Shown here piece after piece: positions 705 through 64,000 of a DNA stretch of 64,000 bases. How positions within the stretch are numbered: the first letter of the stretch is position 1; each line of letters starts with the position of its first letter. The stretch covers positions 546 through 64,545 of the forward strand of contig JBPBPH010000089.1 of the NCBI GenBank assembly GCA_050954355.1, written 5' to 3'. The notes beneath the pieces were generated by a model that did no database searches, was not told the DNA's origin, and saw only the letters and a list, made by a program, of their open reading frames with translations. Position numbers and translations under genes: made by a program. The stretch comes from Janthinobacterium lividum. Its GTDB lineage: Bacteria; Bacteroidota; Bacteroidia; Cytophagales; Hymenobacteraceae.

Positions 705-925
705 AAATAACGAAGGTGGTGGAAACGGTAGGCGGCCCTAGGGCCACACCAGTGGGGAATAGCAAATGTATAACAAGGGCGCGGGTTGCCGGCGGGGCGG
801 CCCTAGGGCCCGGGGCGAGCGGCATCGGGCTAGCTAGTGCATCTTTGCGCCCGCTTTCAACTTTTCGGAAGCAGCTTGCGTTCTCTCGGTCCGAGAAAAC
901 TTTACCCGTCCCTCCCGTCTTTCGC

Positions 926-3418
926 ATGGTCAAGAATCTAGTTATTGTCGAGTCGCCCGCCAAAGCCAAAACCATTGAGGGTTACCTCGGCCAGGATTAC
1001 GTGGTGCGCTCCAGCTATGGCCACGTGCGCGACCTGCCCAAGGACAACAATGCCGTGGACGTGGCCAACGGCTTCAAACCTACTTACGTGGTAGATGCCG
1101 ATAAGCGCGAGCTGATTTCGCAGCTCAAGAAGCTGGCCAAGGAAGCGGAGATGGTGTGGCTGGCGAGCGACGACGACCGCGAGGGCGAAGCCATTTCGTG
1201 GCATCTCTCGGAAACCCTTAACCTAAAGGCCGACAAGACGAAGCGCATCGTGTTTCGCGAGATTACCAAGCCGGCCATCCTCAACGCCATCGAGCATCCG
1301 AGGGCCATCAACCTGAACCTGGTGAACGCCCAGCAGGCCCGGCGCGTGCTCGACCGCCTGGTGGGCTTCGAGCTGAGCCCCGTGCTGTGGCGCAAGGTGA
1401 AAGCCGGCCTGAGCGCGGGCCGCGTGCAGAGCGTGGCCGTGCGCCTGGTAGTAGACCGCGAGCGCGAAATCAACCAGCACAAGTCGGCCAGCGCCTACCG
1501 CGTGGTGGCCCGCTTCGACGCCGGCCAGGGCACCACCCTGGAGGCCGAGCTGCCCACCCGCTACAAAACCCGCGAGGAAGCCGAAGCCTTTTTGCAGCGC
1601 TGCCTAGGGGCCACCTATAGTATTAACAGCCTCGACAAAAAGCCGGGCAAGCGCACGCCGGCGGCGCCCTTCACCACCAGCACCTTGCAGCAGGAGGCCT
1701 CGCGCAAGCTGGGCTTCTCGGTAGCCCAAACCATGACGGTAGCCCAGAAGCTCTACGAGGCCGGCCACATCAGCTACATGCGCACCGACTCGGTGAACCT
1801 GAGCGAGGAGGCCCGCCTAGGGGCCCGCGCGGCCATCGAGGCCGCTTACGGCGCCCAGTACGCCCACGAGCGGCAGTTCAAAACCAAGTCGGCCAGCGCC
1901 CAGGAGGCCCACGAGGCCATCCGGCCCACCCACTTCGAGCAGGTGAAGGCCGGCGCCGACAGCTCCGAGCAGCGCCTCTACGACCTCATTCGCAAGCGGG
2001 CTATGGGCTCACAGATGGCCGACGCGCAGGTGGAGCGCACCACGGCCGTGATTGGCATCAGCACCCAGCCGGGCGTCACGTTTTCGGCTACCGGCGAGGT
2101 GATTACGTTCGAGGGCTTTTTGAAGGCCTACGCCGAAAGCAAGGACGACGACGAGGAAGAAGGCAAGCCGGCCGATGGCGAAAGCAGCTTCTCTAGGGGG
2201 TTGCCGCCGCTGAGCGTGGGCCAAAACCTGCCGTTGCAAACCCTGACGGCCACCGAGCGCTTCAGCACGCCGCCGGCCCGCTACACCGAGGCCTCGCTGG
2301 TGAAGAAGCTGGAGGAAATGGGCATCGGCCGCCCCAGCACCTACGCCCCCACCATCAGCATCGTGCAGAAGCGCGGCTACGTGGAAAAAGACTCGCGCGA
2401 GGGCAAGGAGCGCAAGTTTTACGCGCTGAGTTTAACCGATAGCGCGGTAAAAACCGAGCAGCGCACCGAAACCTACGGCGCCGACAAAGCCAAGCTCTTC
2501 CCTACTGATACGGCCCTAGTAGTCAACGATTTCCTGGTCGAGCACTTCCCCAATATCGTGGATTTCCAGTTCACGGCCAAGGTGGAGGACGAGTTCGACC
2601 AGATTGCCAACGGCCGCGAGGATTGGGGCCACATGCTGGCGGGCTTCTACGAGCCGTTTCACCAGAGCGTGGAGCGCGGGCAGGACATTGAGCGCAGCAC
2701 GCTGAGCAGCACCCGCGAGATTGGCCTGCACCCCGAAACGGGCGAGAAAATAACGGCCCGCCTGGGCAAATACGGCCCCTACGTGGCCCTGGGGGACACC
2801 ACCGACCCCAACGTGAAACCGGCCTACGCCAACTTGCGCAAGGGCATGTTTATCGAAACCATTACCCTGGAAGAGGCGCTGGACTTGTTCAAACTGCCTA
2901 GGGTAGTGGGCGCGTTTGAGGACAAGGATATGACGGCCGCGTTGGGTCGGTTTGGGCCCTACATCCGCCACGACAGCAAGTTTTATTCGCTGACCAAGGA
3001 GCAGGACCCGCACACCATTACCGGCGACGAGGCCGTGGTGCTTATCGAGGCCAAGCGCAAGGCCGACGCCGAGCGCCTCATCAAGGAGTTTCCCGAAAAC
3101 CCCGACGTGCAGGTGCTGAACGGGCGCTTCGGCCCTTACATCGTGGCGGGCAAGAAGAACGTGAAGATTCCGAAGGGCGAAGAACCCACGGAACTAACCC
3201 TGGAGCGCTGCCTGGAGCTGGCCGCCGCCACCCCCGACAAGCCCGCCAAGGGCGGCCGCTTTGGCAAGAAGGCCGCCGTCGAGAAGCCAGCTAAGGAAGT
3301 GGACGCGCCCACCAAAAAGGCCGCGAAAGAAGCCGTACCAGCCAAGAAAAAGGCGCCGGCGGCCAAAAAGAAAGCGGCCGCCAAGCCCGCCGCTAAAAAA
3401 ACTGCCGCCAGCAAGTAA
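926..3418 (+). CDS. topA: DNA topoisomerase I
   Basis: [37 protein letters not shown] and GIGRPSTYA motifs; Lys/Ala-rich tail. Start placed at ATG 926. Confidence 0.97.
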
Positions 3419-3440
3419 GTCGCTAAGGCGTTTTTTGCAG

Positions 3441-3472
3441 AAAGCTCCGCCCAGTTGGCGGGGCTTTTTTTG
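3441..3472 (+). terminator. Rho-independent terminator after topA
   Basis: AAAGCTCCGCC-loop-GGCGGGGCTTT hairpin followed by a T-run. Confidence 0.8.
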
Positions 3473-3687
3473 GCCCCTAGGCCTGTGGCAGTTAGGCTGG
3501 CCGTAAGGCGCAGGCAAGGCCGCCGGGCCCAATGAAAATTAGGTGAGCACCACGGTTGAGGCAAAGCCTTTTATTGGGTATAATTTATTGATAAACAACC
3601 TCATCCGTACCAACTATGGCCAAATGATGGGCGTAAGAAAGGGGCAGCCACCACTATTGGGGCTGATAACTCCTTTTCCACCACCCT

Positions 3688-4560: not shown

Positions 4561-4577
4561 GCGCTTGCCAGAAGACT

Positions 4578-4615
4578 AAAAAAGGCGGTCGTGCTCATCT
4601 GGCGTCCGCCTTTTT
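4578..4615. terminator. Bidirectional terminator-like hairpin derived from the REP family
   Basis: AAAAAGGCGG...CCGCCTTTTT between convergent genes. Its core TGCTCATCTGGCGTCCGC recurs at about 6614. Confidence 0.6.
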
Positions 4616-4638
4616 GTTCTTTTAGCTTCTTGCCTTGA

Positions 4639-10146: not shown

Positions 10147-10196
10147 CGAACAAATGCGCAGCAAACCCCAGCATAGCAGGCTCGTAAGCAGCAAGG

Positions 10197-10316
10197 CAGC
10201 CACCAAGCCCGTCCTGCTCAGCTTATCGAAGCATCTCTACCGCGCCGTTGGATTAGTAACCCTGGTGGCGCGGCAGGGATGCTTCGACAAGCTGAGCAGG
10301 ACGGGCTTGGTGGCTG
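10197..10316. repeat. REP-like long inverted repeat
   Basis: Arms GTCCTGCTCAGCTTATCGAAGCATC / GATGCTTCGACAAGCTGAGCAGGAC. Confidence 0.85.
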
Positions 10317-10340
10317 TATTTCTATCCGATTAGCTTCTTC

Positions 10341-12893
10341 ATGCCTTCCTCCGAAAATCTACCTGGCTTCGTGCAAGTGCGCGGCGCCCGCGAGCACAAC
10401 CTCCAAAACATCGACGTGGATATTCCGCGCGATGCGCTGGTAGTATTTACCGGCATCTCGGGCTCGGGCAAGAGCAGCCTGGCTTTTGGCACGCTCTACG
10501 CCGAGGCCCAGCGCCGCTACCTCGAATCGGTGTCGCCCTACGCCCGGCGGCTCTTCAACCAGATGGCGGTGCCCGACGTGGACCGCATTACGGGGCTGCC
10601 GCCGGCCGTGGCCCTGCAGCAGCAGCGCGGCGCCCCGAGCACCCGCTCGTCGGTGGGCAGCGTGACGACGCTGGCCAACCTCTTGCGTATGCTCTACTCG
10701 CGGGCCGGCCACTACCCTAGGGGCCAAGGCATTGTGTATGCCGAAGGCTTCTCGCCCAACACACCCGAGGGCGCCTGCCCCACCTGCCACGGCCTGGGGC
10801 GGGTGTACGAGGCCACCGAGGCCAGCATGGTGCCCGACCCCGCGCTCACCATCCGCGAGCGGGCCGTGGCGGCCTGGCCCCAGGCCTGGGGCGGCCAAAA
10901 CCAGCGCGACATCCTGGTGAGTTTGGGCTACGATGTGGACGTGCCCTGGCGCGAGCTGCCCCAAAAAACCCGCGACTGGATACTCTTTACCGATGAGCAA
11001 CCGGTGCTGCCAGTATATCCCGGCTACTCGCCCCAGGAAACCCAGCGGGCGATAAAGCGCCGGGAGCCGCCCAACTACATGGGCACCTTTACCGGGGTGC
11101 GGCGCTACGTGCTGCACACCTTCGCCACCACCCAAAGTGCGCTGATGAAAAAACGGGTGGCTCAGTACCTGCTCAGCACCGCGTGCCCCACCTGCCGTGG
11201 CAAGCGCCTGCAGCAAGCCGCCCTGGCCGTGACGTTCGCGGGCCTCGACATCACCGAACTGCAGCGCCTGCCGCTCAAGCGCCTCTCCGAACTGCTGCGG
11301 CCCTTTGCCGCGGGCCAGGGCCTAGGGCCCCAGGTGGCCGCCGAGGCGCCAGAGAAGGTTATCGTGACCCAGCGCATCGCCGCCGATTTGGTGGCGCGCC
11401 TGGCAGTGCTGCTCGATTTGGGCCTAGGGTACCTCGACCTGGAAAGGAGCACGCCCACCTTATCGCCGGGCGAGCTGCAGCGCCTGCGGCTGGCTACCCA
11501 GCTGTATTCCAACCTGTTTGGGGTGGTGTACGTGCTCGACGAGCCCTCGGCGGGCCTGCACCCGGCCGATACCGAAGCGCTGCTCACGGCGCTGGCCGAC
11601 CTCAAGCAAGCGGGCAACTCGCTGTTTGTGGTGGAGCATAACCTGGCCGTGGTGCGCCAGGCCGACTGGCTGGTGGACGTGGGCCCGGCCGCCGGCCGCC
11701 ACGGCGGGCGCGTGCTCTACAGCGGGCCGCCGGCGGGCCTGGCCCAAGTGCCCGAGTCGATAACGCGGCGCTACCTGTTTGCCGACGGGCCGCCCGCTTT
11801 GCCCACCCCGCGCCCCGCCGCCGGCTGGCTGCAACTGCGCGGCGTGCGCCGCCACAACCTGCAAAACCTGGCCGTGGATATCCCCCTAGGGGTGCTCACG
11901 GCCGTAACGGGCGTGTCGGGCTCGGGCAAGAGCACCCTCGTGAGCCAGGTGCTGGTCGAGCTGGTGCTGGGCGCCCTGGGCCAGCAACTGCCCGAAGCCG
12001 ACGAAACCGACCCGCTGGAGCAGCCCGCCCCCGAAACCACTGGCGGACACCTGGTAGGCAGCCCCAACCACCCCAGTGGTTCAGGTGGCTCAGGTGGCCT
12101 AGGCGGTATCGGCCGGCTGGTGCAAGTCGACCAGAAGCCGATTGGCCGCACGCCGCGCTCAAACCTGGCCACCTACACGGGGCTGTTTGACGCGGTGCGG
12201 GCGCTATTTGCCAGCACCCCGGCGGCCCGGCAGCGCCGCTACGATGCCGGCCGCTTCTCGTTTAACGTGGTCAAGGGCCGCTGCCCCAACTGCCAGGGCG
12301 AGGGCTCGGTGATGGTGGAGCTGCTGTTTTTGCCCAGTGTGTATGCGCCCTGCTCGGTGTGTCACGGCGCCCGCTACAACCCCAAAACGCTGGAAATCAC
12401 CTACCAAGACAAAAACATTGCCGATGTGCTGGCCCTGACCGTGGACGAGGCCTGGGCGTTTTTTAGCGGGGAGGCGGCCGTGCGCCGTGCCCTCACAGTG
12501 CTGCGCGAAGTGGGCCTAGGCTACCTGCGCCTGGGCCAGCCCGCCACCGAGCTGAGCGGCGGCGAGGCCCAGCGCGTGAAGCTGGCCACCGAACTGCAGC
12601 GCGCCCAGCGCGGCCACACGCTCTACGTGCTCGACGAGCCCACCACCGGCCTGCACCCCGCCGACGTAGAGCGCCTGCTGCTGCAGTTGCGCGCCCTGGT
12701 AGCGGCCGGCCATTCGGTGGTGGTGGTGGAGCACGACCTGCGCGTGATTGCCGCCGCCGACTGGGTGCTCGACATCGGCCCCGGCGCCGGCGACGAGGGC
12801 GGCCGCGTGGTAGTGGCCGGGCCGCCCGCCGCGGTGGCGCAGGCGCCGCAAAGCAAGCTGGCGGGGTATCTGCGCGCGTATTTGGGCGAATAG
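10341..12893 (+). CDS. UvrA-family excinuclease ABC ATPase (short UvrA2/DrrC-like paralogue)
   Basis: Two Walker A motifs ([18 protein letters not shown]), signatures LSPGE and LSGGE, CxxC zinc modules; 850 aa. Confidence 0.9.
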
Positions 12894-12924
12894 TCGAGCT
12901 ATATTTGCTAGGGGTTGATTTCCT

Positions 12925-13031
12925 CCTAAAAGGCGGTCATGCTGAGCGCAGCCGAAGCATCGCTATCGCATCGTTGAGCGATGCTAAGTAGCGATGCTTC
13001 GGCTGCGCTCAGCATGACCGCCTTTTTTAGG
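12925..13031. repeat. REP-like long inverted repeat
   Basis: GGCGGTCATGCTGAGCGCAGCCGAAGCATCGCTA plus its exact reverse complement. Confidence 0.9.
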
Positions 13032-13068
13032 CCGCCGACCCTAGCGGGACTCATTTACAACTGCTTCT

Positions 13069-15639
13069 ATGCTCCTTTCTCTACTCCTCGCCGCCCTGCT
13101 CGCCCCTACCCCGCCCGGCCCGGTGCCGGTGGTGCCGGGCGTGTCGCGGGTGCTGGCCGAGGCGCGCAAGGCCCGCATTAGCCGCGTGGCCTACACCCTC
13201 GACCTGGCGGTGGCGGGCGGCCCGGACGCGCCGCTGGAGGGCAGCGAAACCATCAGCTTTCGCCTGCGCGACAACCGCCAGCCGGTGCAGCTCGACTTTA
13301 AGGCGCCCACTGACCACCTGCGCCGCCTGCTGGTAAACGGCCAGCCCACGCCCATCGACCACCGCGCCGAGCACCTGGTGCTGCCCGCCGCCGCCCTGCG
13401 CGTAGGGCCCAACGAGGTGCGCCTGGAGCTGCAAGCCGGCGACTTATCGCTGAACCGCAACGCCGACTACCTCTACACCCTGCTGGTGCCCGACCGCGCC
13501 CGCACGGTGTTTCCGTGCTTCGACCAGCCCGATTTGAAGGCCACCTTCACGGTGTCGCTCACGGTGCCGCGCGACTGGCAGGTGCTCACCAACGCCAAGC
13601 CTCTGGGCCACCTGGAGCGCGACCTGACCAAAACAATGAACTACCAGGCGTCTGACTCCATCAGCACCTACCTGTTTTCGCTGGTGGCGGGCAAATTTAC
13701 CAGGGTATTCGAGGCCGTGGATGGGCGCACGATGGCCCTGCTGCACCGCGAAACCGATACCACCAAGCTGCGCCTGAGCCTGCCGGTTATCTTCCAAACC
13801 CACGGCCGGGCCCTGGCGTTTATGGAGCAGTACACGGGCCTGCAATACCCGTTTCAGAAGCTTGATTACGTCGCCATTCCCGACTTTCAGTACGGCGGCA
13901 TGGAGCACGTGGGCGCCATCGACTACAAGGCCAGCAGCTTGTTTCTGGACCAGGGCGCCACCAAAGACCAGCTGGTGGCCCGCCAAAACCTGATTGGCCA
14001 CGAAACGGCCCACATGTGGTTTGGCGACCTCGTGACGATGCGCTGGTTTAACGACGTGTGGATGAAGGAGGTATTTGCCAACTTTATGGCCGACAAGCTG
14101 AGCGCGGACACCGAAGACGCCGAGGGCCAACTGCTCAAGTTCCTCACCGACCACTACCCGGCGGCCTACGCCGTGGACCGGACCCTAGGGGCCAATTCCA
14201 TTCGGCAGCCGCTGGAAAACCTGCAGGAGGCGGGCTCACTCTACGGCGGCATCATCTACCACAAGGCGCCCATCATGATGCGGCAGCTGGAGCTGCTGAT
14301 GGGCGAGGAAAACTTCCGGGCCGGCGTGCGCGAGTACCTGGCCACCTACGCGGGCGGCAACGCCACCTGGCCCGACCTCATCGCCATCCTGGACGCCCAC
14401 ACGCCCGCCGACCTCGCCGCCTGGAACCAGGTGTGGGTAAACGAGCCCGGCCGCCCGGTCTTCAGCTACGACTTGCAGCAGGCCGGCGGCAAGATTACCA
14501 GCCTCACCATCAGCCAAAAGGCCGAAGATGGTTCGCCGCGCGTGTGGCCCCAGCGCTTCGATGCGGTGCTGCTGTCGGCCACCGGGCAAGTGCTGGCGCA
14601 GGGCGAGGTAGACGCCGCCCAGGCCCGCGTGGCGGCGCCCTGGGCCGCGGGCGCGCCCGCCCCGGCCTATGTGGTGCTGAACGCGCACGGGCTGGGCTAC
14701 GGCGTGTTTCCGGTGGCGCCGGCGCTGGCCGGGCAGCTGCCCGCGCTCACCGCCGCAGGCTGGCTGCGCGGGGCGGCCGCCCCTAGGGCCGCGCTCTACA
14801 CCAGCCTCTACGAAAACATGCTGCGCGGCGAGGGCAGCTCGCCCCGCCAGCTGCTGGCTGCCTACGTGGCGCAGTTACCTCACGAAGATGCTGAGCTGAA
14901 TATCAAGCTACTAACCAACCAGCTGGGCGCTATGTACTGGCAGTTCCTGTCGCCCGCCGAGCGCCTGGCGCAGGCCCCGGCCGTGGAGGCGGCACTGTGG
15001 CAGGCTATGCAGGCTGCCCCCACACCGGGCGCGCAAAAGCTGTTTTTCCAGGCCTACCAGCGCGTGGCCCTCAGCCCAGCGGCCCTCGGGCGCCTCTACC
15101 AAGTGTGGCAAACGCAGCAGGCCCCGGCCCAGGTGAAGCTGACCGAGGACGACTACACCAGCCTGGCCCTGGCGCTGGCCGTGCACGACTACCCCGCGCC
15201 GCAGCCCCTTTTGCCGGCCCAGCTCGCCCGCGTGCAGAACCCCGACCGCCGCGCCCGCCTGGCGTACCTCATGCCCGCCCTCTCGCCCGACGCGGCCGTG
15301 CGCGACCAGTTTTTTGCCGGCCTAACCCAGGCAAAAAACCGCGAAAAGGAAGCCTGGGTGGCCACGGCCCTGGGCTACCTGCACCACCCGCTGCGCCAGG
15401 CCGCCTCCGCCAAGTACCTGCCCCAAAGCCTGGCCCTGCTCCAGGAAATTCAACTGACGGGCGACATCTTTTTTCCGGCCGCTTGGCTGCAAGCCACCCT
15501 AGGGCAGTACCAGTCGCCGGCCGCGGCCCAGGTAGTGCGCGGTTTTTTGGCGGCGCATAAAACCTACAATCCGCAGCTGCGGGGCAAAATATTGCAGGCC
15601 GCCGACGACTTGTTTCGGGCGGAGCGGCTGGTGAAGTAA
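13069..15639 (+). CDS. M1-family aminopeptidase (secreted)
   Basis: GGMEH exopeptidase motif; HETAH-x18-E zinc site (WMKE); signal peptide. Confidence 0.93.
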   Translation: MLLSLLLAALLAPTPPGPVPVVPGVSRVLAEARKARISRVAYTLDLAVAGGPDAPLEGSETISFRLRDNRQPVQLDFKAPTDHLRRLLVNGQPTPIDHRAEHLVLPAAALRVGPNEVRLELQAGDLSLNRNADYLYTLLVPDRARTVFPCFDQPDLKATFTVSLTVPRDWQVLTNAKPLGHLERDLTKTMNYQASDSISTYLFSLVAGKFTRVFEAVDGRTMALLHRETDTTKLRLSLPVIFQTHGRALAFMEQYTGLQYPFQKLDYVAIPDFQYGGMEHVGAIDYKASSLFLDQGATKDQLVARQNLIGHETAHMWFGDLVTMRWFNDVWMKEVFANFMADKLSADTEDAEGQLLKFLTDHYPAAYAVDRTLGANSIRQPLENLQEAGSLYGGIIYHKAPIMMRQLELLMGEENFRAGVREYLATYAGGNATWPDLIAILDAHTPADLAAWNQVWVNEPGRPVFSYDLQQAGGKITSLTISQKAEDGSPRVWPQRFDAVLLSATGQVLAQGEVDAAQARVAAPWAAGAPAPAYVVLNAHGLGYGVFPVAPALAGQLPALTAAGWLRGAAAPRAALYTSLYENMLRGEGSSPRQLLAAYVAQLPHEDAELNIKLLTNQLGAMYWQFLSPAERLAQAPAVEAALWQAMQAAPTPGAQKLFFQAYQRVALSPAALGRLYQVWQTQQAPAQVKLTEDDYTSLALALAVHDYPAPQPLLPAQLARVQNPDRRARLAYLMPALSPDAAVRDQFFAGLTQAKNREKEAWVATALGYLHHPLRQAASAKYLPQSLALLQEIQLTGDIFFPAAWLQATLGQYQSPAAAQVVRGFLAAHKTYNPQLRGKILQAADDLFRAERLVK

Positions 15640-15641
15640 TT

Positions 15642-17029: not shown

Positions 17030-17914
17030 ATGGCGAAGGCAGCGTCCGTCTTTGGTTTGGTGCCGGGCATTGCGTCGGGCCACGAGTTTGCCAACCGCCT
17101 GGAGCTGTGGGGCGCGGGCGTGCACCGCCAAACGCAAGCCGGCATCAGCGCCCGCCAGGGCGAGGGAGCTGAAAGCATCGTGCTCTCGGGTGGCTATGAG
17201 GATGATGAGGACCTAGGCGATATCATCATTTACACCGGCCGGGGCGGGCGCAGCGCCGAAAGCCAGCAGCAAGTAGCCGACCAAACCCTGACCGGCGCCA
17301 ACCAGGAATTGGCCCGCAACGTGCTACTAGGGCTGCCCGTACGCGTAACGCGCAAAATCACTGAGGCCGGCCGCAGCTTTTACCGCTACGCCGGCCTCTA
17401 CCGCATTGCCGCGTACTGGGCCGCGCCGGGCCGCGCGGGCTACCGGGTGTGGCGCTTCCAGTTGGAAGCTTTGCCCGAGTTGCCTGCCGCGGCCCTAGGG
17501 TCGGATTCATCTCTAAACGTGCAGGAGCCAGCCGCCAGCTACGGCCCAGCACCGCGCCGCGCGAGTACCACGCTCCGGCTAGTGCGCGATACGGCCGTGA
17601 CGCGCCAGGTTAAGAAGCTCTATGACTACCACTGCCAAGTGTGCCGCACGCGCCTGAGTAGTCCGGCCGGGCCCTATGCGGAAGCGGCCCATATTCAGCC
17701 CCTAGGCACCCCGCACCACGGCCCCGACATCTTAGCCAACGTGCTGTGCCTCTGTCCTAACCACCACGTATTATTTGACTACGGCAGTTTTGGCATTGCC
17801 AAATCGGGCGAGCTGTTAGGCCTACCAGGCAAGTTGCTGATGCAACCCAAGCATCCGCTGGCTGCACAGTACCTTGCCTACCACCGCACCCGCTTCTACG
17901 AGCCGCAGCTGTGA
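17030..17914 (+). CDS. SRA(YDG)-HNH endonuclease; putative modified-cytosine-dependent (type IV) restriction enzyme
   Basis: SRA motif GVHRQTQAGIS...SIVLSGGYEDDEDLGDIIIYTGRGG; HNH motif CQVC...EAAHI...NVLCLCPNHH. Confidence 0.9.
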   Translation: MAKAASVFGLVPGIASGHEFANRLELWGAGVHRQTQAGISARQGEGAESIVLSGGYEDDEDLGDIIIYTGRGGRSAESQQQVADQTLTGANQELARNVLLGLPVRVTRKITEAGRSFYRYAGLYRIAAYWAAPGRAGYRVWRFQLEALPELPAAALGSDSSLNVQEPAASYGPAPRRASTTLRLVRDTAVTRQVKKLYDYHCQVCRTRLSSPAGPYAEAAHIQPLGTPHHGPDILANVLCLCPNHHVLFDYGSFGIAKSGELLGLPGKLLMQPKHPLAAQYLAYHRTRFYEPQL

Positions 17915-18393
17915 GCCAGCCACCCGCTCCCCGCTTCGGCCACGTGGGCACCACCCAGCCGGGCGACTTGTTTCACTCGCGGCTAGAGCTATCCTTGCGG
18001 GGGCAGCACCGGCCGCGGCGGGCGGGCGTGGCCGCCACGGCGGCCCTAGGGGCCGAAAGCATCGTGCTGGCCGCAGCCTACGAGGACGACGAGTACCACG
18101 AAAACTACTTTTGGTACGCGGGCAGCGGCGGGCGCGACGCCAAAACCGGCCGCCAAATAGCCGCCCAGGACCCCGCCGACTACCGCAACCAGGGCCTGCT
18201 GCGCAGCGAGCAAACCGGCCAGCCGGTGCGCGTTTTTCGGCGCATTGCGCCGGGCGGCGCGTGGCAGTTTCGCTACGAGGGGCTGTGGCGCGTGGTGGCA
18301 CACACGGTTGGGCCGGGCCGCGCGGGCTGGCAGGTGTTCCGGTTTCGGCTGGAGCCGTGGGGCAGTCCAGGGCTCCTTGGCGCCGGCCGTTAG
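17911..18393 (+). CDS. Stand-alone SRA(YDG)-domain protein
   Basis: RFGHV...HRPRRAGV...AESIVLAAAYEDDE...YAGSGG...N.GL...PVRVFR...RYEGLWRV. GTGA overlap with the upstream gene. Confidence 0.85.
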   Translation: MSQPPAPRFGHVGTTQPGDLFHSRLELSLRGQHRPRRAGVAATAALGAESIVLAAAYEDDEYHENYFWYAGSGGRDAKTGRQIAAQDPADYRNQGLLRSEQTGQPVRVFRRIAPGGAWQFRYEGLWRVVAHTVGPGRAGWQVFRFRLEPWGSPGLLGAGR

Positions 18394-18442
18394 CAGCCCC
18401 TAGGGTGCACCTTTGTGCCCTAGGCCCTCCCCGCCGCGCCCC

Positions 18443-19138: not shown

Positions 19139-22081
19139 ATGCGCTTTCTACTCCTTGCCGGCCTAGGTTGGCTTTTGACCTTCAACGCCTTGGCCCAAAG
19201 CACGGTGCGCGGCAAGGTGCTCGACGCCAAAGACCAGTCGCCGCTCATCGGGGCCAACGCGGTGCTCATTCACCTGCCCGACTCGGTGAAGACGGGCACG
19301 GCCGTGGGCGCCGACGGCAGCTTCGAGATAACGGGCGTAGCGCCCGGCCGCTACCTGTTTCGGGCGTCGTTTCTAGGGTACCAGGACCAGCGCCAGCCCC
19401 TGACCGTGCCCGCCGACGGCGCGCCCATCAGCCTGGGTACCGTGGGCATGAACCCCGGCGGCGTGGCCCTAAAAACGGTAGTGGTGACCGGCCAAGCCGT
19501 GCAGCAGACTCAGCACGGCGACACCACCAGCCTCAACGCCAAGGCATTTAAGGTGAACCCCGACGCCACGGCGGGCGACCTGATTGGCAAGATGCCGGGC
19601 ATTCAGGTGGATGCGCAGGGCAAAACCCAGGCCCAGGGCGAGCAGGTGCAGCAGGTGCTGGTCGATGGCAAGCCCTTCTTCGGCACCGACCCCGACGCGG
19701 TGCTCAAAAACCTGCCGGCCGAAGCCATTGATCGAGTCGAAATTTTCGACCAAATGAGCGAGCAGAGCCGCTTCTCGGGCTTCAACGACGGCAACACCCA
19801 GAAAACGCTTAACATCATCACCAAGCCGCAGTTCCGCAACGGGCAGTTTGGGCGGGCGGTGGCCGGCGTGGGCCCCGACGGCGGCGGCACCGGCAGCGGC
19901 AGCCGCTACAAAGCCAGCCTGAACCTCAACGACTTCCACGACAACCGGCGCACCACGGTGCTGGCCCAGAGCAACAATGTGAACGAGCAGAACTTCTCGC
20001 CCGACGACCTCCTGGGGGTCATTGGCAACTCGGGGGGCGGTGGCGGCGGGCGCGGCAATGGCGGCGGGGGCGCCGGCGGGGGCGGCGGGGGCAGCGGCGG
20101 CAATCCGGGCGATTTCCTCACCAGCCAGAACGGGGGCATCAGCACCACCAACGCGGCGGGGCTCAACTACTCCAACGCGTGGAACAACAAGCATACCGAG
20201 CTGACGGGCAGCTACTTCTTCAATCACTCGAATAACACGCTCAACAGCACCACCAACCGGCAGTTCGTCAACGGCACGCTCTACCAGGAAAACGCGACCT
20301 CGGGCAGCACCAACCTCAACCACCGGGCCAACCTGCGCTTCGAGCAGCAGCTTGACTCGGCCACCTCGCTGCTGTTCCGGCCTAGGGTGTCGTGGCAGCA
20401 AAACGATGCCAACAAGGTGCTGGCGGGCGTCACATCCAGCGAGGGCGCGGCGCTGAGCAACATCAACACGCTGTACAACAGCAACAACATGGCCGCCAAC
20501 CCGGCCGGCGACCTACTGCTGCGCCGCCGCCTGGGCAAGCGCGCCGGCCGCACGCTCTCGCTCAGCCTCACCGGCGCCCTCAACGACCGCAATGGCAGCA
20601 GCCTGCTGCGCACCACCAGCACCGGCACCGGCACCAACCTTAACCAGCGCGCCGACCTCAACCAGCACAGCGGCACCCTAGGGGGCAACCTGGCTTATAC
20701 CGAGCCCGTGGGCAAGCACGCCCAGCTGCAAGCCAACTACACGCTCAACTACGCCCCCAACAACTCGGAAAAGTACACCTACGACCTAAGCGGCAACGAC
20801 CAGCAGACGCTGAATGCGGCCCTAAGCAACGTGTTTGACAACTACTACCTCACCCAAGGCGGCGGGCTGAGCTACCGCTACAACACCCGGAAAATCCAGT
20901 TTTCGGTGGGCGCCAGCGGGCAGGTGGCCCAGCTGCGCGGCAACCAGACCTTTCCAGTGGCCGGGCCGGTGCGCTACACCTTCGTAAACGTGCTGCCCCA
21001 GGCCAACCTGATGTACCGCATCGACCGCACCCACAACCTGCGCGTGTTTTACCGCACCAACACCAACGCGCCGAGCATCAACCAGTTGCAGGCCGTGGTA
21101 AACAACTCGAACCCGCTGCAGCTCACCATTGGCAACCCGGCCCTGCGCCAGGAGTACGCCCACAACCTGGTGGCGCGCTACACGGGCTCGAACCCCGAGA
21201 AGAAGGGCAATTTCTTCGCCCTGCTCTCGGGCTCGTTCACCCAAAACCCCATTGCCAACCGCACTTTGCTGGGCCGGCGCGACACCACCGTGACGCCCGA
21301 GGGCACCAACCAGGCCGTACTCCTGCCGGCCGGTGGCCAGCTCACCCAGAGCACCAACCTCTCGAACCAGTATACCCTGCGCACCCTGGGCAGCTACGGG
21401 CAGCCGCTGTTTGGCTCGAAGCTCAACCTCAACGCCAACCTAGGGGCCAGCTACAGCCAAACCCCCGGCCTGGTCAACCTGGGCCTCAACTACGCCCGCA
21501 CGCCGGCCATCACCGGGGGCGTAACGCTGAGCAGCAACATCAGCCAGAACCTGGACTTCACGCTCTCCTCGAACTCCACCCAGAGCTACGTGCATAACAC
21601 GCTCAACAAGCAGCTCAACAGCCAATATTTCAGTCAGTTGACGCGCCTGCGCCTGAGCTGGATAGTGGGGCCGGGCATCTCCATTAAGAGCGACGTGGCC
21701 CACCAGCTCTACCGGGGCTTGAGCAGCGCCTACAACCAAAACTACGCCCTCTGGAACGCCAGCCTCGGCAAGAAAATCTTCAAGCAGCGCGGCGAAATTC
21801 AGATTTACGCCTTCGACTTGCTGAAGCAAAACCGCGCCATTCAGCGCAACGTGAACGTGGCCTACGTGGAAGACGTGCAAACCACGGTGCTGCAGCGCTA
21901 CTTCATGCTCATGTTCACCTACAACATCCGCTCGGCCAACATGACCCTGCCCACCGGCCCCGAGGGCCCCGAGGGCGGCGGGCGGCGCGGGCGCGGCGGC
22001 TTCGACGGCCCGCCCCCCGGCGGGGGGCCGCCGCCCGGCGGGGGGGGCAGCGGGGGCTTTGGTGGCCCGCCCGGCGCCTAG
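19139..22081 (+). CDS. Outer-membrane beta-barrel protein (TonB-receptor-like, N-terminal carboxypeptidase-regulatory-like domain)
   Basis: Signal peptide; KMPGI...VLVDGKPFFG plug; Gly-rich loops; IGNPAL; RYFMLMFTY. Confidence 0.85.
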   Translation: MRFLLLAGLGWLLTFNALAQSTVRGKVLDAKDQSPLIGANAVLIHLPDSVKTGTAVGADGSFEITGVAPGRYLFRASFLGYQDQRQPLTVPADGAPISLGTVGMNPGGVALKTVVVTGQAVQQTQHGDTTSLNAKAFKVNPDATAGDLIGKMPGIQVDAQGKTQAQGEQVQQVLVDGKPFFGTDPDAVLKNLPAEAIDRVEIFDQMSEQSRFSGFNDGNTQKTLNIITKPQFRNGQFGRAVAGVGPDGGGTGSGSRYKASLNLNDFHDNRRTTVLAQSNNVNEQNFSPDDLLGVIGNSGGGGGGRGNGGGGAGGGGGGSGGNPGDFLTSQNGGISTTNAAGLNYSNAWNNKHTELTGSYFFNHSNNTLNSTTNRQFVNGTLYQENATSGSTNLNHRANLRFEQQLDSATSLLFRPRVSWQQNDANKVLAGVTSSEGAALSNINTLYNSNNMAANPAGDLLLRRRLGKRAGRTLSLSLTGALNDRNGSSLLRTTSTGTGTNLNQRADLNQHSGTLGGNLAYTEPVGKHAQLQANYTLNYAPNNSEKYTYDLSGNDQQTLNAALSNVFDNYYLTQGGGLSYRYNTRKIQFSVGASGQVAQLRGNQTFPVAGPVRYTFVNVLPQANLMYRIDRTHNLRVFYRTNTNAPSINQLQAVVNNSNPLQLTIGNPALRQEYAHNLVARYTGSNPEKKGNFFALLSGSFTQNPIANRTLLGRRDTTVTPEGTNQAVLLPAGGQLTQSTNLSNQYTLRTLGSYGQPLFGSKLNLNANLGASYSQTPGLVNLGLNYARTPAITGGVTLSSNISQNLDFTLSSNSTQSYVHNTLNKQLNSQYFSQLTRLRLSWIVGPGISIKSDVAHQLYRGLSSAYNQNYALWNASLGKKIFKQRGEIQIYAFDLLKQNRAIQRNVNVAYVEDVQTTVLQRYFMLMFTYNIRSANMTLPTGPEGPEGGGRRGRGGFDGPPPGGGPPPGGGGSGGFGGPPGA

Positions 22082-22178
22082 GGCCAGCGGCGGGTAAAAG
22101 GCCTCAGGCGCGGGTTAGCGGCGTTGCTACCTATCTTGCTGTCCCCATTTTTACCAACGACCTGCCTTTCCCTAGTCT

Positions 22179-30115: not shown

Positions 30116-31108
30116 TCACTTTTGCAGCACCAGCACGCCGTTGAGCAGGAAGTTGTCGCCCGCCTCGGTGGTTAGGTTATACACGGGCTGCAGGCCGCCC
30201 GCGTACTCGCGGGTGCGCAGCACGGTGTGCGGCTCCACGGCCTGGGTGGCGGGATGAAGGCATAAAATCTGGTCGCCCACTACTACCTCGCCGGCGGTCC
30301 TAGGGCCCCCTAGGGTTTGCAAAGGGTGGTTGGGGGTGGCTTCCAGCACCCGGCTGGCCAGCTGGATGGTGGTGGCGTGGGCGCTGGCTTGCTCGCGCAC
30401 GGCCACTACATGCAGCTGCGTGAGGGCATAATTTTGGGCTGCGTGGGCGTGCACGGCCCGCACGGTGGTGGCCGCGGGCTGCCCGGTGCGGGCATCGAGG
30501 CCCAGTATTTGGTCGCCGGGCTGCACGGCGCGCAGGGCCCGGTGGCCGCCGCCAGCCAGCGCCACCAGCTGCTCGCCGGGAAAGCAGATGTCGTTGCCGT
30601 AGGTGCCCGACTCGGCCGAGAGGTTCTTGCCCTGGTTGAGGACCTTGAACTGCTGGAAAGCCAGCTCCTTGGACAGCACGTAGGACAGCTTCAGCACGAA
30701 GTTCTTTTCCTCGCGGTCGATGGCGTGAATGTCCTCGAAGTACTGGTTCCACACCTTGCCGTCGGCGGTGTAGTCGGGCAGCAGCGCCTGGTAGCGCTTA
30801 CCCTTCTCGTTGGTGTAATAAACCAGGGTGCCTATTTCCTGCATTCCGTCTTTGGCAAGGAGCTTGTAGAGGTCGATGCGTTTTTTCAGCCCGTCGTCGC
30901 CCGTAATGAAGTAGGGCTTGCGGGCCTCGTAGCGGTCCAGGATGTACGCATTCTCAAATTTGACGTAGCTATCCGCGTCCAGGTCCTTGACGGCAAACGT
31001 CCGGGCTTTCTTGTACTCGTCGAGGGTGAGCGGGCGGGGGTTGGGCTGGCCTAGGGCCGCGCCGCTGCTGCCCAGCAGGAGCAGGCTGGCAAGCAAGGTG
31101 TTGCGCAT
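30116..31108 (-). CDS. Secreted protein with a C-terminal Hint (Hedgehog/intein) domain
   Basis: Sec signal; block A CFPGEQLV (Cys175); block B ATPNHP; block F VYNL; ends NFLLNGVLVLQK. Confidence 0.85.
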   Translation of the reverse strand: MRNTLLASLLLLGSSGAALGQPNPRPLTLDEYKKARTFAVKDLDADSYVKFENAYILDRYEARKPYFITGDDGLKKRIDLYKLLAKDGMQEIGTLVYYTNEKGKRYQALLPDYTADGKVWNQYFEDIHAIDREEKNFVLKLSYVLSKELAFQQFKVLNQGKNLSAESGTYGNDICFPGEQLVALAGGGHRALRAVQPGDQILGLDARTGQPAATTVRAVHAHAAQNYALTQLHVVAVREQASAHATTIQLASRVLEATPNHPLQTLGGPRTAGEVVVGDQILCLHPATQAVEPHTVLRTREYAGGLQPVYNLTTEAGDNFLLNGVLVLQK

Positions 31109-35153: not shown

Positions 35154-35720
35154 ATGGCCCCCGACGACTGCTTTGAGCTAGGCTACCTCGTGAAGCCCCA
35201 CGGCCTGAAGGGCCAGTTTATCGCCGAGCTGGATGTGGACGACGCCAGCGCCTACGACGACCTCGAAACCGTATACCTGGCCCTGCCCACGGCGCCCGAC
35301 AAGCTTACGGCTTACCCGGTGGAGCGCTTCAGCCCCCAAGGCGGCCTGCGCGTGCTGCTCAAGCTGCGCGGCATCGAGCGGCTGGAGGAAGCCGAGCCCC
35401 TGCGCAACGCCAAGCTCTGGCTGCCCCTCACCGAGCTGCCCGAGCTGGACGAAGCCCAGTTTTATTTTCACGACGTCATTGGCTTTCAAGTAATTGATGC
35501 CCAAGAGGGAGCCCTAGGGGTGGTGGAGAATTTTTATGAGCTGCCCCAACAGGATGTGCTGGCCATGCGCCACCAGGGTCAGGAAGTGCTCATTCCGGTG
35601 GTGGATGAGCTAGTGAGCCACGCCGATATGGCAGCCCGGCAGCTGTTCGTGAACCTGCCCGAAGGCCTACTGGATATCTACTTGAATCCTAGCGCCCACA
35701 AAAACCCTAACGCCGACTAG
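35154..35720 (+). CDS. rimM: 16S rRNA processing protein RimM
   Basis: KPHGLKG, FYFHDVIG, EVLIP and LPEGLLD motifs; synteny. Confidence 0.95.
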   Translation: MAPDDCFELGYLVKPHGLKGQFIAELDVDDASAYDDLETVYLALPTAPDKLTAYPVERFSPQGGLRVLLKLRGIERLEEAEPLRNAKLWLPLTELPELDEAQFYFHDVIGFQVIDAQEGALGVVENFYELPQQDVLAMRHQGQEVLIPVVDELVSHADMAARQLFVNLPEGLLDIYLNPSAHKNPNAD

Positions 35721-35854: not shown

Positions 35855-36529
35855 ATGCGGGTAGACATCCTCACTTGCCAGCCCGAGCTGCTGGCCAGCC
35901 CCCTAGGCCACTCCATCGTGAAAAGGGCCCAGGAAAAGGGGCTGGTGGAGGTGCACCTGCACCAACTGCGCGAGCGGGCCATCAACAAGCACGGGCAAAT
36001 TGACGATTACGTGTTTGGCGGCGGCGCCGGCATGGTGCTGCGCGTAGAGCCCATTGCCGCCTGGCTCGACGAGTTACGAGCGCAACGTTTCTACGAGGCC
36101 ATTATTTACCTCACGCCCGATGGCGAAGTGCTGCGCCAGCCGCTGGCCAACCGGCTCTCGCTGCTGGGCAACGTGATTCTGCTGTGCGGGCACTACAAAG
36201 GGGTAGACCAACGCATTCGGGATGAGTACGTTACCCACGAAATCAGCCTGGGCGACTACGTGCTGAGCGGCGGCGAGCTGGCCGCCGCCGTGCTGGTCGA
36301 TGCCGTGGTGCGGCTGCTGCCGGGCGTGCTGGGCAACGAGGAATCGGCGTTGTCGGACTCGTTTCAGGACGATTTGCTGGCGCCGCCGGTGTACACGCGG
36401 CCGGCCGAATGGCGCGGGCGGGCGGTGCCCGAGATTCTGCTTTCGGGTAATACGCCCAAAATTGAGGAATGGCGGCACGAGCAAGCCTTGGCCCGCACCC
36501 AAGCCTTACGGCCCGATTTACTTCAGTAA
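35855..36529 (+). CDS. trmD: tRNA (guanine-N1)-methyltransferase
   Basis: [29 protein letters not shown] and YTRP motifs. Confidence 0.97.
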
Positions 36530-39828: not shown

Positions 39829-41004
39829 GTGGCTTCTTTTACAACTAAAACCCTGGCCCTGCTGGGCTCGACGGGCTCCATTGGCACGCAGGCGCTGGAA
39901 GTGGTGCGCGCGCAAAAAGGGCGGTTTCGGGTGGCGGTGCTCACGGCGGGGCGGCAGTGGCAGCGGCTGGTGCAGCAGGCCCAGGAGTTTCGGCCGGCCG
40001 CCGTGGTGGTTGCCGACGAGTTTTACCACGACGTAAAAACCGCGCTGGCCGGCCAGCCCGAAACCGAGGTGCTGGCCGGCGCGGCGGCGCTGACGCAAGT
40101 AGTGCAGCGCCCCGACGTGGAGGTGGTGCTCACGGCCCTGGTGGGCTACGCGGGCCTAGGGCCCACGGTAGCGGCCATTCGGGCGGGCAAGGACATTGCC
40201 CTGGCCAACAAGGAAACCCTGGTGGTGGCCGGCGAGCTGATTACCAGCCTCGTGCGTGAGCACGGGGTGCGCCTGCTGCCCGTCGATAGCGAGCACTCGG
40301 CCATTTTCCAGTGCTTGGTGGGCGAGGCAGCTAACCCGCTCGAGAAAGTCATCCTCACGGCGTCGGGCGGGCCGTTTCGGGGGCGCACCGTGGCCCAGCT
40401 GGCGAGCATCACTCAAGCGCAGGCCCTGAAGCACCCCAACTGGACGATGGGCGCCAAAATCACCATCGACTCGGCCACGCTCATGAACAAGGGCCTGGAA
40501 GTGATTGAGGCCAAGTGGCTGTTTGACCTGGCCAATGACCAAATTGACGTGGTGGTGCACCCGCAAAGCATCGTGCACTCGCTGGTGCAGTTCCAGGATG
40601 GCTCGCTGAAGGCCCAGCTGGGGCTGCCCGACATGAAGCTGCCCATTCAATACGCCCTAGGGTACCCGCAGCGGCTGCCGAATGCCTGGCCCCGGTTTTC
40701 GTTTCTCAACTACCCCAGCCTCACCTTCGAGGCGCCCGACCTGGGCACGTTTCGGCACCTGCCGCTGGCCTTCGCAGCTATGCGGGCGGGCGGCACCGCG
40801 CCCTGCGTGCTCAACGCGGCCAATGAGGTAGCGGTGGCCGCGTTTTTGCAGGATGAGGTGAGCTTCCTGGGCATGGCCGATGCGGTGGCCGAAACCCTGG
40901 AAAGGGTGCCGTATCTTGCAACCCCAACCCTGGCCGACTACGCCGCCACCGACGCCGAGGCGCGGCGCGTGGCGACCGGGCTAGTCAAGGCATCACTTAG
41001 TTAA
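39829..41004 (+). CDS. dxr: 1-deoxy-D-xylulose-5-phosphate reductoisomerase
   Basis: LGSTGSIG, LANKE, PVDSEH, HPNWTMG, NKGLE and NAANE motifs. GTG start is inferred. Confidence 0.97.
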   Translation: MASFTTKTLALLGSTGSIGTQALEVVRAQKGRFRVAVLTAGRQWQRLVQQAQEFRPAAVVVADEFYHDVKTALAGQPETEVLAGAAALTQVVQRPDVEVVLTALVGYAGLGPTVAAIRAGKDIALANKETLVVAGELITSLVREHGVRLLPVDSEHSAIFQCLVGEAANPLEKVILTASGGPFRGRTVAQLASITQAQALKHPNWTMGAKITIDSATLMNKGLEVIEAKWLFDLANDQIDVVVHPQSIVHSLVQFQDGSLKAQLGLPDMKLPIQYALGYPQRLPNAWPRFSFLNYPSLTFEAPDLGTFRHLPLAFAAMRAGGTAPCVLNAANEVAVAAFLQDEVSFLGMADAVAETLERVPYLATPTLADYAATDAEARRVATGLVKASLS

Positions 41005-61417: not shown

Positions 61418-61449
61418 TTTCTTGTTTCTAAACTCAAACCATCCTACGC

Positions 61450-61887: not shown

Positions 61888-61970
61888 AGAGCCCAAAGAT
61901 ATTGGCTGTACCTTACGGCCAGCTTTTCTCACTCCCCTAGGTTATAGACCATCTTTCTACCTACCAGCTC

Positions 61971-62567: not shown

Positions 62568-62598
62568 GGAAGGGTCCGTTTCCTTTCCTTTCGCGCCC

Positions 62599-63105
62599 AT
62601 GCCTGCCAACCCCGACTCTGCTGACTCTTTATTGGCGCCCTACCAGGGGCAGGTGCGGGTGCGGGTAGGTGGGCTGCTGGTGCGCCAGGGGGCCATTTTG
62701 CTGGCCGCCCACCGCGGGCTGCTGCCCGGCCAGGCCACGTTCTGGTCACCGCCCGGCGGGGGCTGGGTATTTGGCGAGAGCCTGAAGGACGCGCTGCGCC
62801 GCGAGTTTGCGGAAGAAACCGGCCTGGCCGTGCGCGTGGGGCGGCAGCTGCACCTGCACGAGTTTCGGGAGCGCGGCCTGCAGGCGCTGGAAATCTTCTT
62901 TGAAGTAACCACCACCGACCCTGCGGCCACCCCGCACCTGGGCCACGACCCCGAGCACGGCGCCCACGCGCAGCTGCTGGCCGAGCTGGCCTGGCTCACG
63001 CCTCGGCAGTTGCTGGCCCTGCCGCTGCTCCAGGTGCACCCCGTGCTGCGCGGCCTGCTCAGCCCCGACGACATCTTCGTGCCCCAGGTGCTGCTGGGGG
63101 CCTAG
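62599..63105 (+). CDS. NUDIX hydrolase
   Basis: Nudix box GGG...GESLKDALRREFAEETGL. Confidence 0.92.
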   Translation: MPANPDSADSLLAPYQGQVRVRVGGLLVRQGAILLAAHRGLLPGQATFWSPPGGGWVFGESLKDALRREFAEETGLAVRVGRQLHLHEFRERGLQALEIFFEVTTTDPAATPHLGHDPEHGAHAQLLAELAWLTPRQLLALPLLQVHPVLRGLLSPDDIFVPQVLLGA

Positions 63106-63141
63106 GGGCGCGGGGCCGGGCCTAGGCCCTACTTTTACCGC

Positions 63142-64000
63142 GTGGCTGCCCCTACTCTTCCCCTTCTTGCTACCCCCGCCGTCGAAACCGTGCGCCTGCG
63201 CGACGAGGCCTTCGACCTCGCCAACCCCACGGCCTACCACCTCTACGCCCTGGCCGCGCCGGGCCGCCTGCAAGTGGCTGTCCTCGACGCGGCCCGCCAA
63301 AAAATAGTGGCCCTCGACGACCAGCCCCTTACCCAGCCGGCCGACCTGCCGGCGCTGGCCGCCACCCACGAGCTGCTGGGCCGGCCGGGCTGGGGCCGCG
63401 TGCGGCTAGGCCTGGGCACCCGGGCCTTCACGCTGCTGCCCGCGCCCCTGTTTCGGGCCGGCGACGAGGCGGCCTACCTGGCGCCCCACCACACCCTGGG
63501 CGCCGCCGAGGTGGCCCTGGCCTGCCCCCTGCCCCAGGCCGCGCCCGCTACCGACGTAGTAGCCCTGTTTGCGGCCGATGCGGGCCTAGCGCACTGGCTG
63601 CACCACACCTTTGGGCCCGCCGCCCGCCTGCTGCCCCAGCCGGCGGCGCTGCTGGCTGGCTGGCTGCAGCAGCGCGGACCGGCCGCGCCCGTGCGCCAGC
63701 TCTACCTCAGCCTGGCCGACCAGGAGCTAACGGCCGTGGTGCTGGGCGCCCAACTGGAGTTCTGCAACGTGTTCGCTGTCAATACCCCCGAGGACGTGGT
63801 ATACTTCACCATCTTGGTGATGCAGCAACTGGGGCTGAGCCCCGACCAAGATGCCGTAACCGTTTGGGGCGAGCTGACCGGCGCCTCGGCCGTGTTTAAC
63901 CTGCTGAGCACCTACGTGCGCCACCTGCGCCTAGGGGCCCGGCCCTTCGGCCTGCATTATACCTACCGCCTCAACGACGTGCCCGAGCATCGCCACTTCG
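63142..64000 (+). CDS. DUF3822-like protein (runs off the window end)
   Basis: Hand translation: LRDEAFD...AFTLLPAPLF...LEFCNVFAVNTPEDVVYFTILVMQQL. Confidence 0.75.
   Translation, partial: MAAPTLPLLATPAVETVRLRDEAFDLANPTAYHLYALAAPGRLQVAVLDAARQKIVALDDQPLTQPADLPALAATHELLGRPGWGRVRLGLGTRAFTLLPAPLFRAGDEAAYLAPHHTLGAAEVALACPLPQAAPATDVVALFAADAGLAHWLHHTFGPAARLLPQPAALLAGWLQQRGPAAPVRQLYLSLADQELTAVVLGAQLEFCNVFAVNTPEDVVYFTILVMQQLGLSPDQDAVTVWGELTGASAVFNLLSTYVRHLRLGARPFGLHYTYRLNDVPEHRHF

Follow-up and report, generated by a model that had tools for sequence, protein, structure and literature searches.

CCTAGG sites in the window and in the source genome

The window analysed here is a stretch of 64,000 nucleotides (positions 546 to 64,545 of contig JBPBPH010000089.1) from GenBank assembly GCA_050954355.1, which is deposited as Janthinobacterium lividum and whose closest named relatives by TopA are Hymenobacter. 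It is studded with the palindromic hexamer CCTAGG, in the core genes topA, rimM, trmD and dxr, over stop codons and between genes (Table 1). The source assembly, hereafter G000, comprises 4.83 Mb in 99 contigs at 62.5% GC and is 88.6% complete, and our own calling script found 3,839 genes in it (81% coding). A record titled as a Janthinobacterium lividum metagenome-assembled genome (L111) encodes a TopA 92% identical to the Hymenobacter protein of G000, and this title may be wrong for the bin.

Table 1. CCTAGG sites and site pairs in the window, in window coordinates
Feature	Position	Strand	Remarks
106 dispersed CCTAGG, 51 extended to CCCTAGGG	737..63935	.	counts and shuffles
Site in topA, Leu-Gly frame	1603..1608	+	low-CCTAGG relatives: Ile-Gly 12/13, Val-Gly 1/13; common to G093
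Site in topA, Leu-Gly frame	1816..1821	+	low relatives mostly Lys-Gly (8) or Gln-Gly (2)
Site in topA, Pro-Arg frame (CCT AGG)	2897..2902	+	four low relatives CCC/CCG CGC; common to G093
Intergenic site pair, 20 bp apart	18399..18424	.	spacing favoured in the G000 lineage
Example of a site over a TAG stop (nCC-TAG-G)	22077..22082	+	324 such sites in the genome
Site in rimM	35513..35518	+	
Site in trmD	35902..35907	+	
Two sites in dxr, at 40155 and 40656	40155..40661	+	
Site pair, 20 bp apart, the first overlapping the TAG stop of a NUDIX gene	63101..63126	.	

The original prediction, made on the window, had estimated about 105 CCTAGG and about 50 octamers at roughly 66% GC. The counts were nearly exact, while the GC content proved to be 64.2%. 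Dinucleotide shuffles gave on average 21.1 hexamers (at most 31, with 0 of 100 shuffles reaching 106) and 1.84 copies of CCCTAGGG. By our gene calls, 62 of the 106 sites read nnC-CTA-GG (Leu-Gly), 9 read CCT-AGG (Pro-Arg), 7 lie over a TAG stop and 28 are intergenic. Run X1 may represent the source sample, and eight of its Logan contigs showed 0 differences from the window across the sites, which speaks against an assembly or polishing artefact; runs X2-X4 contained only fragments of other organisms.

The enrichment is not confined to the window. G000 contains 6,583 CCTAGG (1.36/kb) and 2,636 CCCTAGGG, and CCTAGG ranks first among its hexamers by maximal-order Markov z-score. The ratio of observed to expected counts (O/E) was 3.7-4.3 for the hexamer and 19-29 for the octamer, and CTAG overall stood at expectation (0.96), the excess being confined to CCTAGG. 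Nor does codon usage account for it, since coding sequences hold 4,331 sites versus 648-662 in five synonymous-codon shuffles (6.6-fold) and 1,778 octamers versus 39-56 (about 36-fold). Genome-wide, 3,671 sites read nnC-CTA-GG, 659 read CCT-AGG, 324 lie over a TAG stop (the commonest stop in G000) and 1,929 are intergenic, so that 4,654 of the 6,583 lie inside or overlap genes. Sites are spread evenly along genes, at 1.1/kb in coding and 2.1/kb in intergenic DNA, and the intergenic density peaks between convergent genes (4.4/kb) and just past stops, with a minimum in the last 40 bp ahead of starts. Large contigs mostly carry 1.1-1.7 sites/kb; many small contigs and low-GC islands carry almost none.

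The full palindrome is needed, because the CTA share of Leu codons is high only in the C-Leu-GG context (0.516, versus 0.100 in G-Leu-GG and 0.137 in C-Leu-GC), and half-sites are not enriched. Information reaches only about 3 bases outside the core, giving a consensus of roughly G-(C>G)-CCTAGG-(G>C)-C. Among 1,927 intergenic sites, no 16-mer that begins at the site recurs more than 6 times, which bears out the earlier statement that the sites share no longer context and are neither a transposon nor a REP element. The left flank varies almost independently of the right (5,272 seen versus about 5,180 expected, both strands counted), and the flanks are symmetric relative to transcription (585/258 versus 563/276); these two properties together point to double-stranded DNA and a dimer as the level of recognition. 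On the same grounds we rejected quasi-palindrome correction (the flanks being nearly independent) and an RNA-level role (the flanks being strand-symmetric and the sites even along genes).

Among the GC-rich hexamer palindromes of G000, CCTAGG is a lone exception: CCCGGG (0.21), GTCGAC (0.22), CTCGAG (0.25) and GAGCTC (0.29) are all strongly avoided, the usual restriction-avoidance pattern for hexamer palindromes. GATC is nearly absent from G000 (O/E 0.03) and across its subclade irrespective of CCTAGG enrichment, and occurs at 7-49 per 20 kb in more distant Hymenobacter. In the window itself, the intergenic DNA at about 10150-10370 and 12900-13070 contains REP-like repeats that have a high contig depth, with joints between them; a few CCTAGG sites flank this repeat, and AGATGCTT and GCATCTCT are among the top octamers of G000. 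A protein with a Hint (hedgehog/intein) module (30119-31108, minus strand) contains three sites, two of them 10 bp apart.

Patchy distribution within the genus

We surveyed 165 genomes of the genus and 327 sampled genomes of the order outside it, with genome sizes rounded for the density calculation except that of G000; two genomes, G139 and G140, enter only the denominators of the 165-genome tallies and support no claim. The original prediction spoke of a feature of a Bacteroidota chromosome, and in fact the state is patchy. Only 8 of the 165 are dense, with 0.75-1.5 sites/kb or about one CCTAGG per 700 to 1,300 bases, 4 are moderate (0.25-0.40/kb) and 153 are sparse (at most 0.16/kb); outside the genus, 0 of 327 exceeded about 0.37/kb. 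The seven dense genomes other than G000 are 99-100% complete.

The enriched genomes form group A (G000, G093), group B (G051, G109, G123), group C (G053, G059, G143) and a weaker, moderate group D (G064, G066, G179, G173). Two trees, one built from the proteins of eight genes in 27 genomes and one from ComEC in 30, split them into separate groups with low genomes in between; a tree of TopA only was poorly resolved. The order-2 O/E of CCTAGG was 4.3 in A, 5.0 in B, 3.6 in C and 1.6 in D, versus 0.27 in 15 pooled low genomes, and CCTAGG was the top palindromic hexamer in groups A, B and C. Each group has its own flank dialect, with C over G in A, A, C or G in B, mostly A in C (ACCTAGGT) and a GGCCTAGGCC-like form in D. 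Group D (L062-L065) seems to favour the longer palindrome GGCCTAGGCC with little coding enrichment, and may represent a stricter dialect or a different process.

Of 59 Leu-Gly columns that carry a site in group B, 2 have CTA in the four low genomes nearest to that group, which does not exceed the background level. Separate gains are favoured over recent loss because these genomes keep no leftover CTA; older losses are possible. The CCTAGG state would then have been gained separately in three lineages, so that a transferred or repeatedly switched factor probably underlies it.

The contrast is also found among named strains. We tallied 28 loci from TopA matches (Hymenobacter or Solirubrum titles plus one other with 92% TopA identity), which may equal some of the assemblies already handled and were not added to the counts. 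Three are dense, namely H. setariae Fur1 (1.39/kb), H. sp. BT559 (1.43) and Solirubrum puertoriconensis MC1A (1.21), and the other 25, including H. ginkgonis, H. ginsengisoli and H. sp. BRD67, have at most 0.13/kb; the remaining 52 TopA-match loci have at most 0.20/kb. Within one dense genome (G143), the number of sites per 20 kb was 6-29 in 15 spot samples along the chromosome, without a clear gradient, and five samples of its small replicons contained 0-8 sites. A metagenome scan found distant relatives only (at most 67% identity), with 16 sites in 950 kb.

Gain, loss and conservation of sites

We aligned the sister pairs G000/G093 (376 kb aligned out of 480 kb fetched, 86% identity) and G109/G123 (182 kb). 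Aligned orthologues indicate that the sites arose by substitutions, often in several steps, such as CCC/CCG CGC to CCT AGG or ATC GGG to CTA GGG. Thus, the Pro-Arg site of topA needed several synonymous steps, because four low relatives carry CCC/CCG CGC there, and the first Leu-Gly site of topA came with an amino-acid change, because the low relatives have Ile-Gly or Val-Gly at that place. Indeed, CCTAGG sites changed amino acids in G000: the dipeptide is missing from most low relatives at 22 of 37 coding sites, versus at 23 of 76 non-site Leu-Gly/Pro-Arg positions (p 0.004).

Once present, the sites are retained. CCTAGG was conserved in 66% of cases between G000 and G093, versus 8-26% for eight other NCTAGN hexamers (the ninth, TCTAGA, had 4 cases and 0 conserved), and in 78% between G109 and G123, versus 23-45% for the other NCTAGN. 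We estimated rates at the Leu third position in C-CTn-GG with a two-state model, unpolarised and assuming equilibrium. For G000/G093 the site context gave a gain of 0.355 and a loss of 0.232 (controls 0.147 and 1.66), and for G109/G123 0.573 and 0.072 (controls 0.18 and 0.93); relative to control codons, gain is therefore 2-3 times faster and loss 7-13 times slower in both pairs. A single fixation-bias parameter reproduces both shifts fairly closely, predicting a 3.0-fold gain and 0.17-fold loss for G000/G093 (S 2.9; seen, 2.4 and 0.14) and a 3.8-fold gain and 0.09-fold loss for G109/G123 (S 3.7; seen, 3.2 and 0.08). A mutational hotspot would be expected to raise gain only, and is disfavoured on that account.

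Transversions are protected like transitions, with an A/C loss of 0.061 versus 0.15-0.38 in G000/G093 and alike in G109/G123, which disfavours an enzyme of the Vsr type, since it would act on one mismatch only. Divergence at four-fold sites was flat (0.23-0.26) from 10 bp to more than 1.3 kb from conserved sites in G000/G093, so no zone of better repair is visible around them. The commonest sequence facing a site in this pair is CCTGGG/CCCAGG (102 of 392 non-identical cases), and the same sequences are depleted in G109/G123 (0.52-0.55/kb versus 0.81-1.10 in four low relatives). Two weaker signals lie close to the motif: in group A the one-off sequence CCTAGC is conserved in 26% of cases, a weak halo, and in group B CTA is raised in half-site contexts (0.27 versus 0.16).

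Spacing of sites

The sites of G000 are more evenly distributed than other motifs, with a variance/mean of 0.78-0.88 versus 1.1-1.5 for six control hexamers, and gaps under 50 bp number 285 versus 451 expected. Occupancy of [APT]-Leu-Gly positions is 17% where another site lies within 25 bp, climbs to 67% at distances of 400-800 bp, and drops to 43% in the 51 positions more than 1.6 kb from any site; it is flat when measured against two control motifs. The climb repeats in G109/G123 (26% to 81%). Repulsion between sites therefore extends over about 400 bp.

Among close pairs in G000, counts are highest at spacings of 6-9, 18-20 and 25-30 bp and dip at 10-17 and 21-23 bp, which gives a period near 9.9 bp (p about 0.001). 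There are 49 pairs at 18-20 bp versus 4 at 21-23 bp in G000, and 42 versus 7 in G093. We rejected hairpins as the source of the 18-20 bp peak, as 270 of 285 pairs were left after removal of hairpin-like ones and the signal stayed.

Search for a cognate factor

Profile searches with PF00145, PF01555, PF02086 and PF07669 found no methyltransferase common to the enriched genomes. The first two families were searched in all 8 dense genomes plus G064 and G066. C5 methyltransferases (PF00145) occur in 2 of the 8 dense genomes and are not shared as orthologues, PF01555 matches in 3 of the 8 are unrelated proteins, and three dense genomes that are 99-100% complete (G123, G059, G143) have neither. For PF02086 (Dam-class), 0 of 5 dense genomes exceeded the cut-off. 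PF07669 matched in 5 of 5 genomes (4 dense plus G064), in large or unrelated enzymes without an orthologue across the set; its one close pair (G093/G109, 86% identical) lies on CCTAGG-free DNA and has no tblastn match in G000, and was set aside. So was the PF01555 match of G000, which looks like a phage ParB-methyltransferase; at L004 (1390-2667, minus strand), a likely ParB-like/N6-N4 methyltransferase fusion has a probable terminase small subunit as its neighbour, which hints at a prophage on contig C10 (labels assigned by eye). A large Eco57I-family restriction-modification gene (L099, G000:C2:50506-51378, minus strand) has an internal TAG stop and appears broken. Motif regular expressions over the G000 proteome and six frames returned no solitary amino- or C5-methyltransferase candidate.

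Among repair enzymes and nucleases, Vsr was found in 1 of 5 dense genomes, MutH in 0 of 12 enriched and 2 of 8 low genomes, and the MjaI-family nuclease RE_MjaI in 0 of 20 with a positive control. MT-A70 (PF05063) was silent in 20 genomes and RE_CfrBI in 5 (0/5), and in both searches the control was silent too. An SRA-domain gene occurs in 32 of 32 genus genomes searched, though many lack a C5 methyltransferase, and ComEC and HU each occur in 30 of 30. All three were rejected as site readers: they are present everywhere searched, the enriched lineages do not group, and no common residue change, transfer or convergence was found. The window itself encodes an SRA-HNH nuclease followed by a standalone SRA protein (17060-18393, plus strand). 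Intergenic clusters of at least 3 sites, inspected by eye with the N-termini beside them, indicated no autoregulated DNA-binding gene. In G000, regular expressions recovered DprA, ComM and ComF motifs and no type IV pilin or PilT motif.

Favoured reading and its rivals

We tentatively favour the view that CCTAGG is the binding site of a putative two-fold symmetric protein acting on the resident chromosome. Such a protein would read the CCTAGG duplex, and each site would confer a small advantage that shrinks when another lies nearby, about one being needed every few hundred bases. Each site would be under a weak fixation bias (scaled S about 2.9-3.7), and the putative role would lie in nucleoid organisation or in loading of repair machinery. 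We put a chromosome role first because of the palindrome, the short range of repulsion and the helical phasing, the last of which resembles a protein footprint on one helical face, as described for SeqA (PMC2691817). Also in its favour are the joint rise in gain and fall in loss, transversions included, the requirement for the complete palindrome, the independent and symmetric flanks, and the dialects that surround a single core. The part of the original prediction that invoked selection for a protein site fits this view.

Several results weigh against it. Phasing is absent from four other enriched genomes, the counts at 18-20 versus 21-23 bp being 23/19 in G109, 21/30 in G123, 12/15 in G051 and 10/15 in G053, and these four genomes show general short-range depletion only (O/E 0.36-0.79). 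One of seven control hexamers, CAGCTC, was also periodic (p 0.004), and G000 and G093 are sisters, hence their pairs are non-independent. The amino-acid effect was not significant in G109, G051 and G053, and the families searched yielded no cognate gene. Finally, the rates rest on the unpolarised equilibrium model, and they cannot separate selection from an uptake drive, since both give fixation bias and diminishing returns.

This drive, by which CCTAGG-bearing DNA would be preferentially taken up, protected or recombined in natural transformation and would spread without benefit to the cell, is possible though on balance doubtful; a Chi-like role in break repair would be a variant of it. It has precedent, having been proposed for the DNA uptake sequences DUS and USS and recently for HIP1, which raises transformation efficiency (bioRxiv 10.1101/2024.09.10.611283; PMC13756078). 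It fits the dialects around a fixed core, which match those of the DUS of Neisseriaceae (PMC3630211), and the scarcity of sites in low-GC islands, small contigs and plasmid-like replicons, which recalls that of uptake sequences in newly acquired DNA (PMC7811141); ComEC in all 30 genomes searched and the DprA, ComM and ComF motifs of G000 are compatible with it. However, ComEC is equally present in low genomes and the enriched lineages do not group in its tree, regular expressions alone were used in G000 and found neither type IV pilin nor PilT motif, and the uptake sequences known so far, as given in the cited source, are not palindromic (PMC1939737). Furthermore, the repulsion saturates at 400-800 bp, which is short for recombining fragments, and helical phasing has no obvious reason under uptake.

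A bolder extension of the binding-site view, which we regard as rather improbable, is that Hymenobacter lineages have acquired, by horizontal transfer, a sequence-specific chromosome protein that works without methylation and that each time drove thousands of CCTAGG into the genome with its own dialect and spacing rule. If true, bacteria would have a transferable 'chromatin code' that rewrites codons, stops and some amino acids, and that is active in certain species but inactive in sister species.

It is unlikely that the sites are a by-product of a methyltransferase or other modification coupled to biased repair, whether by Elhai's ratchet or by Vsr-like conversion. The ratchet does predict saturation near one site per kb and no gain beside an existing site (PMC4390886), both of which are seen. 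CCTGGG/CCCAGG is indeed the commonest opposite sequence and is depleted in G109/G123, and the G000 assembly is incomplete (88.6%). Yet the dense genomes share no methyltransferase orthologue from the families searched, and G123, G059 and G143 have none from PF00145 or PF01555; PF02086, Vsr and MutH fared no better (0/5, 1/5 and 0/12), and four-fold divergence around conserved sites is flat. The 7-13-fold suppression of loss includes transversions. A single repair enzyme for T:G mismatches would not protect transitions and transversions alike, so the methylase with Vsr-like conversion named in the original prediction is unsupported. Some mechanism outside those listed here is, in our estimate, quite unlikely as well.

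We give next to no credence to an origin in codon or dipeptide preference, in one mutational hotspot, in a repeat element or in an artefact of assembly: most coding sites are indeed Leu-Gly, TAG is the commonest stop and a few intergenic sites flank a REP-like repeat, but such compositional or technical causes are excluded by the synonymous shuffles (about 655 versus 4,331), the genus survey with its eight separately assembled genomes in agreement, the X1 contigs and the shift of both gain and loss rates, together with the higher intergenic density, the near-neutral dipeptide ratios (Leu-Gly 1.12, Pro-Arg 0.87) and the lack of longer context.

Comparison with known systems

The closest counterpart is HIP1 (GCGATCGC) with the alternate HIPs of cyanobacteria (Elhai 2015, PMC4390886; Xu et al. 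2018, PMC5861425), and the original description of CCTAGG as HIP1-like is apt. Both are short GC-rich palindromes with a hexamer core and preferred flanks, near 1/kb in coding frames and intergenic DNA (PMC4390886, PMC5861425), and codon usage likewise fails to account for the enrichment and conservation of CCTAGG, which extend over several reading frames and non-coding DNA. Unlike HIP1, it is hosted by Hymenobacter rather than a cyanobacterium, and has a TA centre in a motif otherwise avoided in the genus (O/E 0.27). As a rule, HIP1 and the alternate HIPs are accompanied by a cognate methyltransferase (PMC4390886, PMC5861425), whereas none was found for CCTAGG among the families searched. CCTAGG also has a scattered distribution inside a single genus, where it carries different flank dialects and was apparently gained more than once, and shows 100-400 bp repulsion and about 10-bp phasing, where the HIP1 passages report a periodicity of 10-90 kb. 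CCTAGG works like HIP1 but differs from it in host, sequence and cognate methyltransferase, and is not filed as HIP1.

With the uptake sequences of Neisseriaceae (DUS) and Pasteurellaceae (USS), CCTAGG shares a density of about 1/kb, dialects with a common core, scarcity in recently acquired DNA and fixation bias (PMC3630211, PMC7811141, PMC1939737). Those sequences, as described there, are longer (9-12-mers) and non-palindromic, whereas CCTAGG is a perfect 6-bp palindrome; DUS is bound by ComP, and regular expressions found no type IV pilin motif in G000. Pairing of sites on one helical face, in G000/G093 only, is reminiscent of SeqA on paired GATC (PMC2691817). SeqA, however, needs Dam hemimethylation according to the same source, and no Dam-class enzyme was found in the 5 dense genomes searched, GATC being nearly absent from G000. 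The hexamer is also the restriction site of AvrII, BlnI and XmaJI (PMC1939737). Unlike a type II restriction-modification site, it is favoured in enriched genomes and avoided in low relatives, and the searches recovered neither a matching methyltransferase nor RE_MjaI. Restriction sites are normally avoided. Nor does CCTAGG resemble a REP or a miniature inverted-repeat transposable element (MITE), in that its copies have no long common sequence and lie mostly in or over genes.

The CCTAGG excess is a real, HIP-like palindrome with new features, and is apparently undescribed, as searches of the open-access literature found no description of CCTAGG over-representation or of such a palindrome in Hymenobacter. 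It shows that a recognisable methyltransferase is no prerequisite for a HIP-like repeat, and in enriched genomes site density marks resident versus recently acquired DNA. HIP1 has been unexplained for about thirty years, partly since most cyanobacteria carry both HIP1 and its methylases and seldom offer a clean contrast. In Hymenobacter, the density of a single palindrome varies 10- to 50-fold between close species, which provides natural on/off controls as a counterpart to HIP1; with dense and sparse named strains at hand, the cognate factor is findable, and selection, uptake drive and biased repair are testable against each other.

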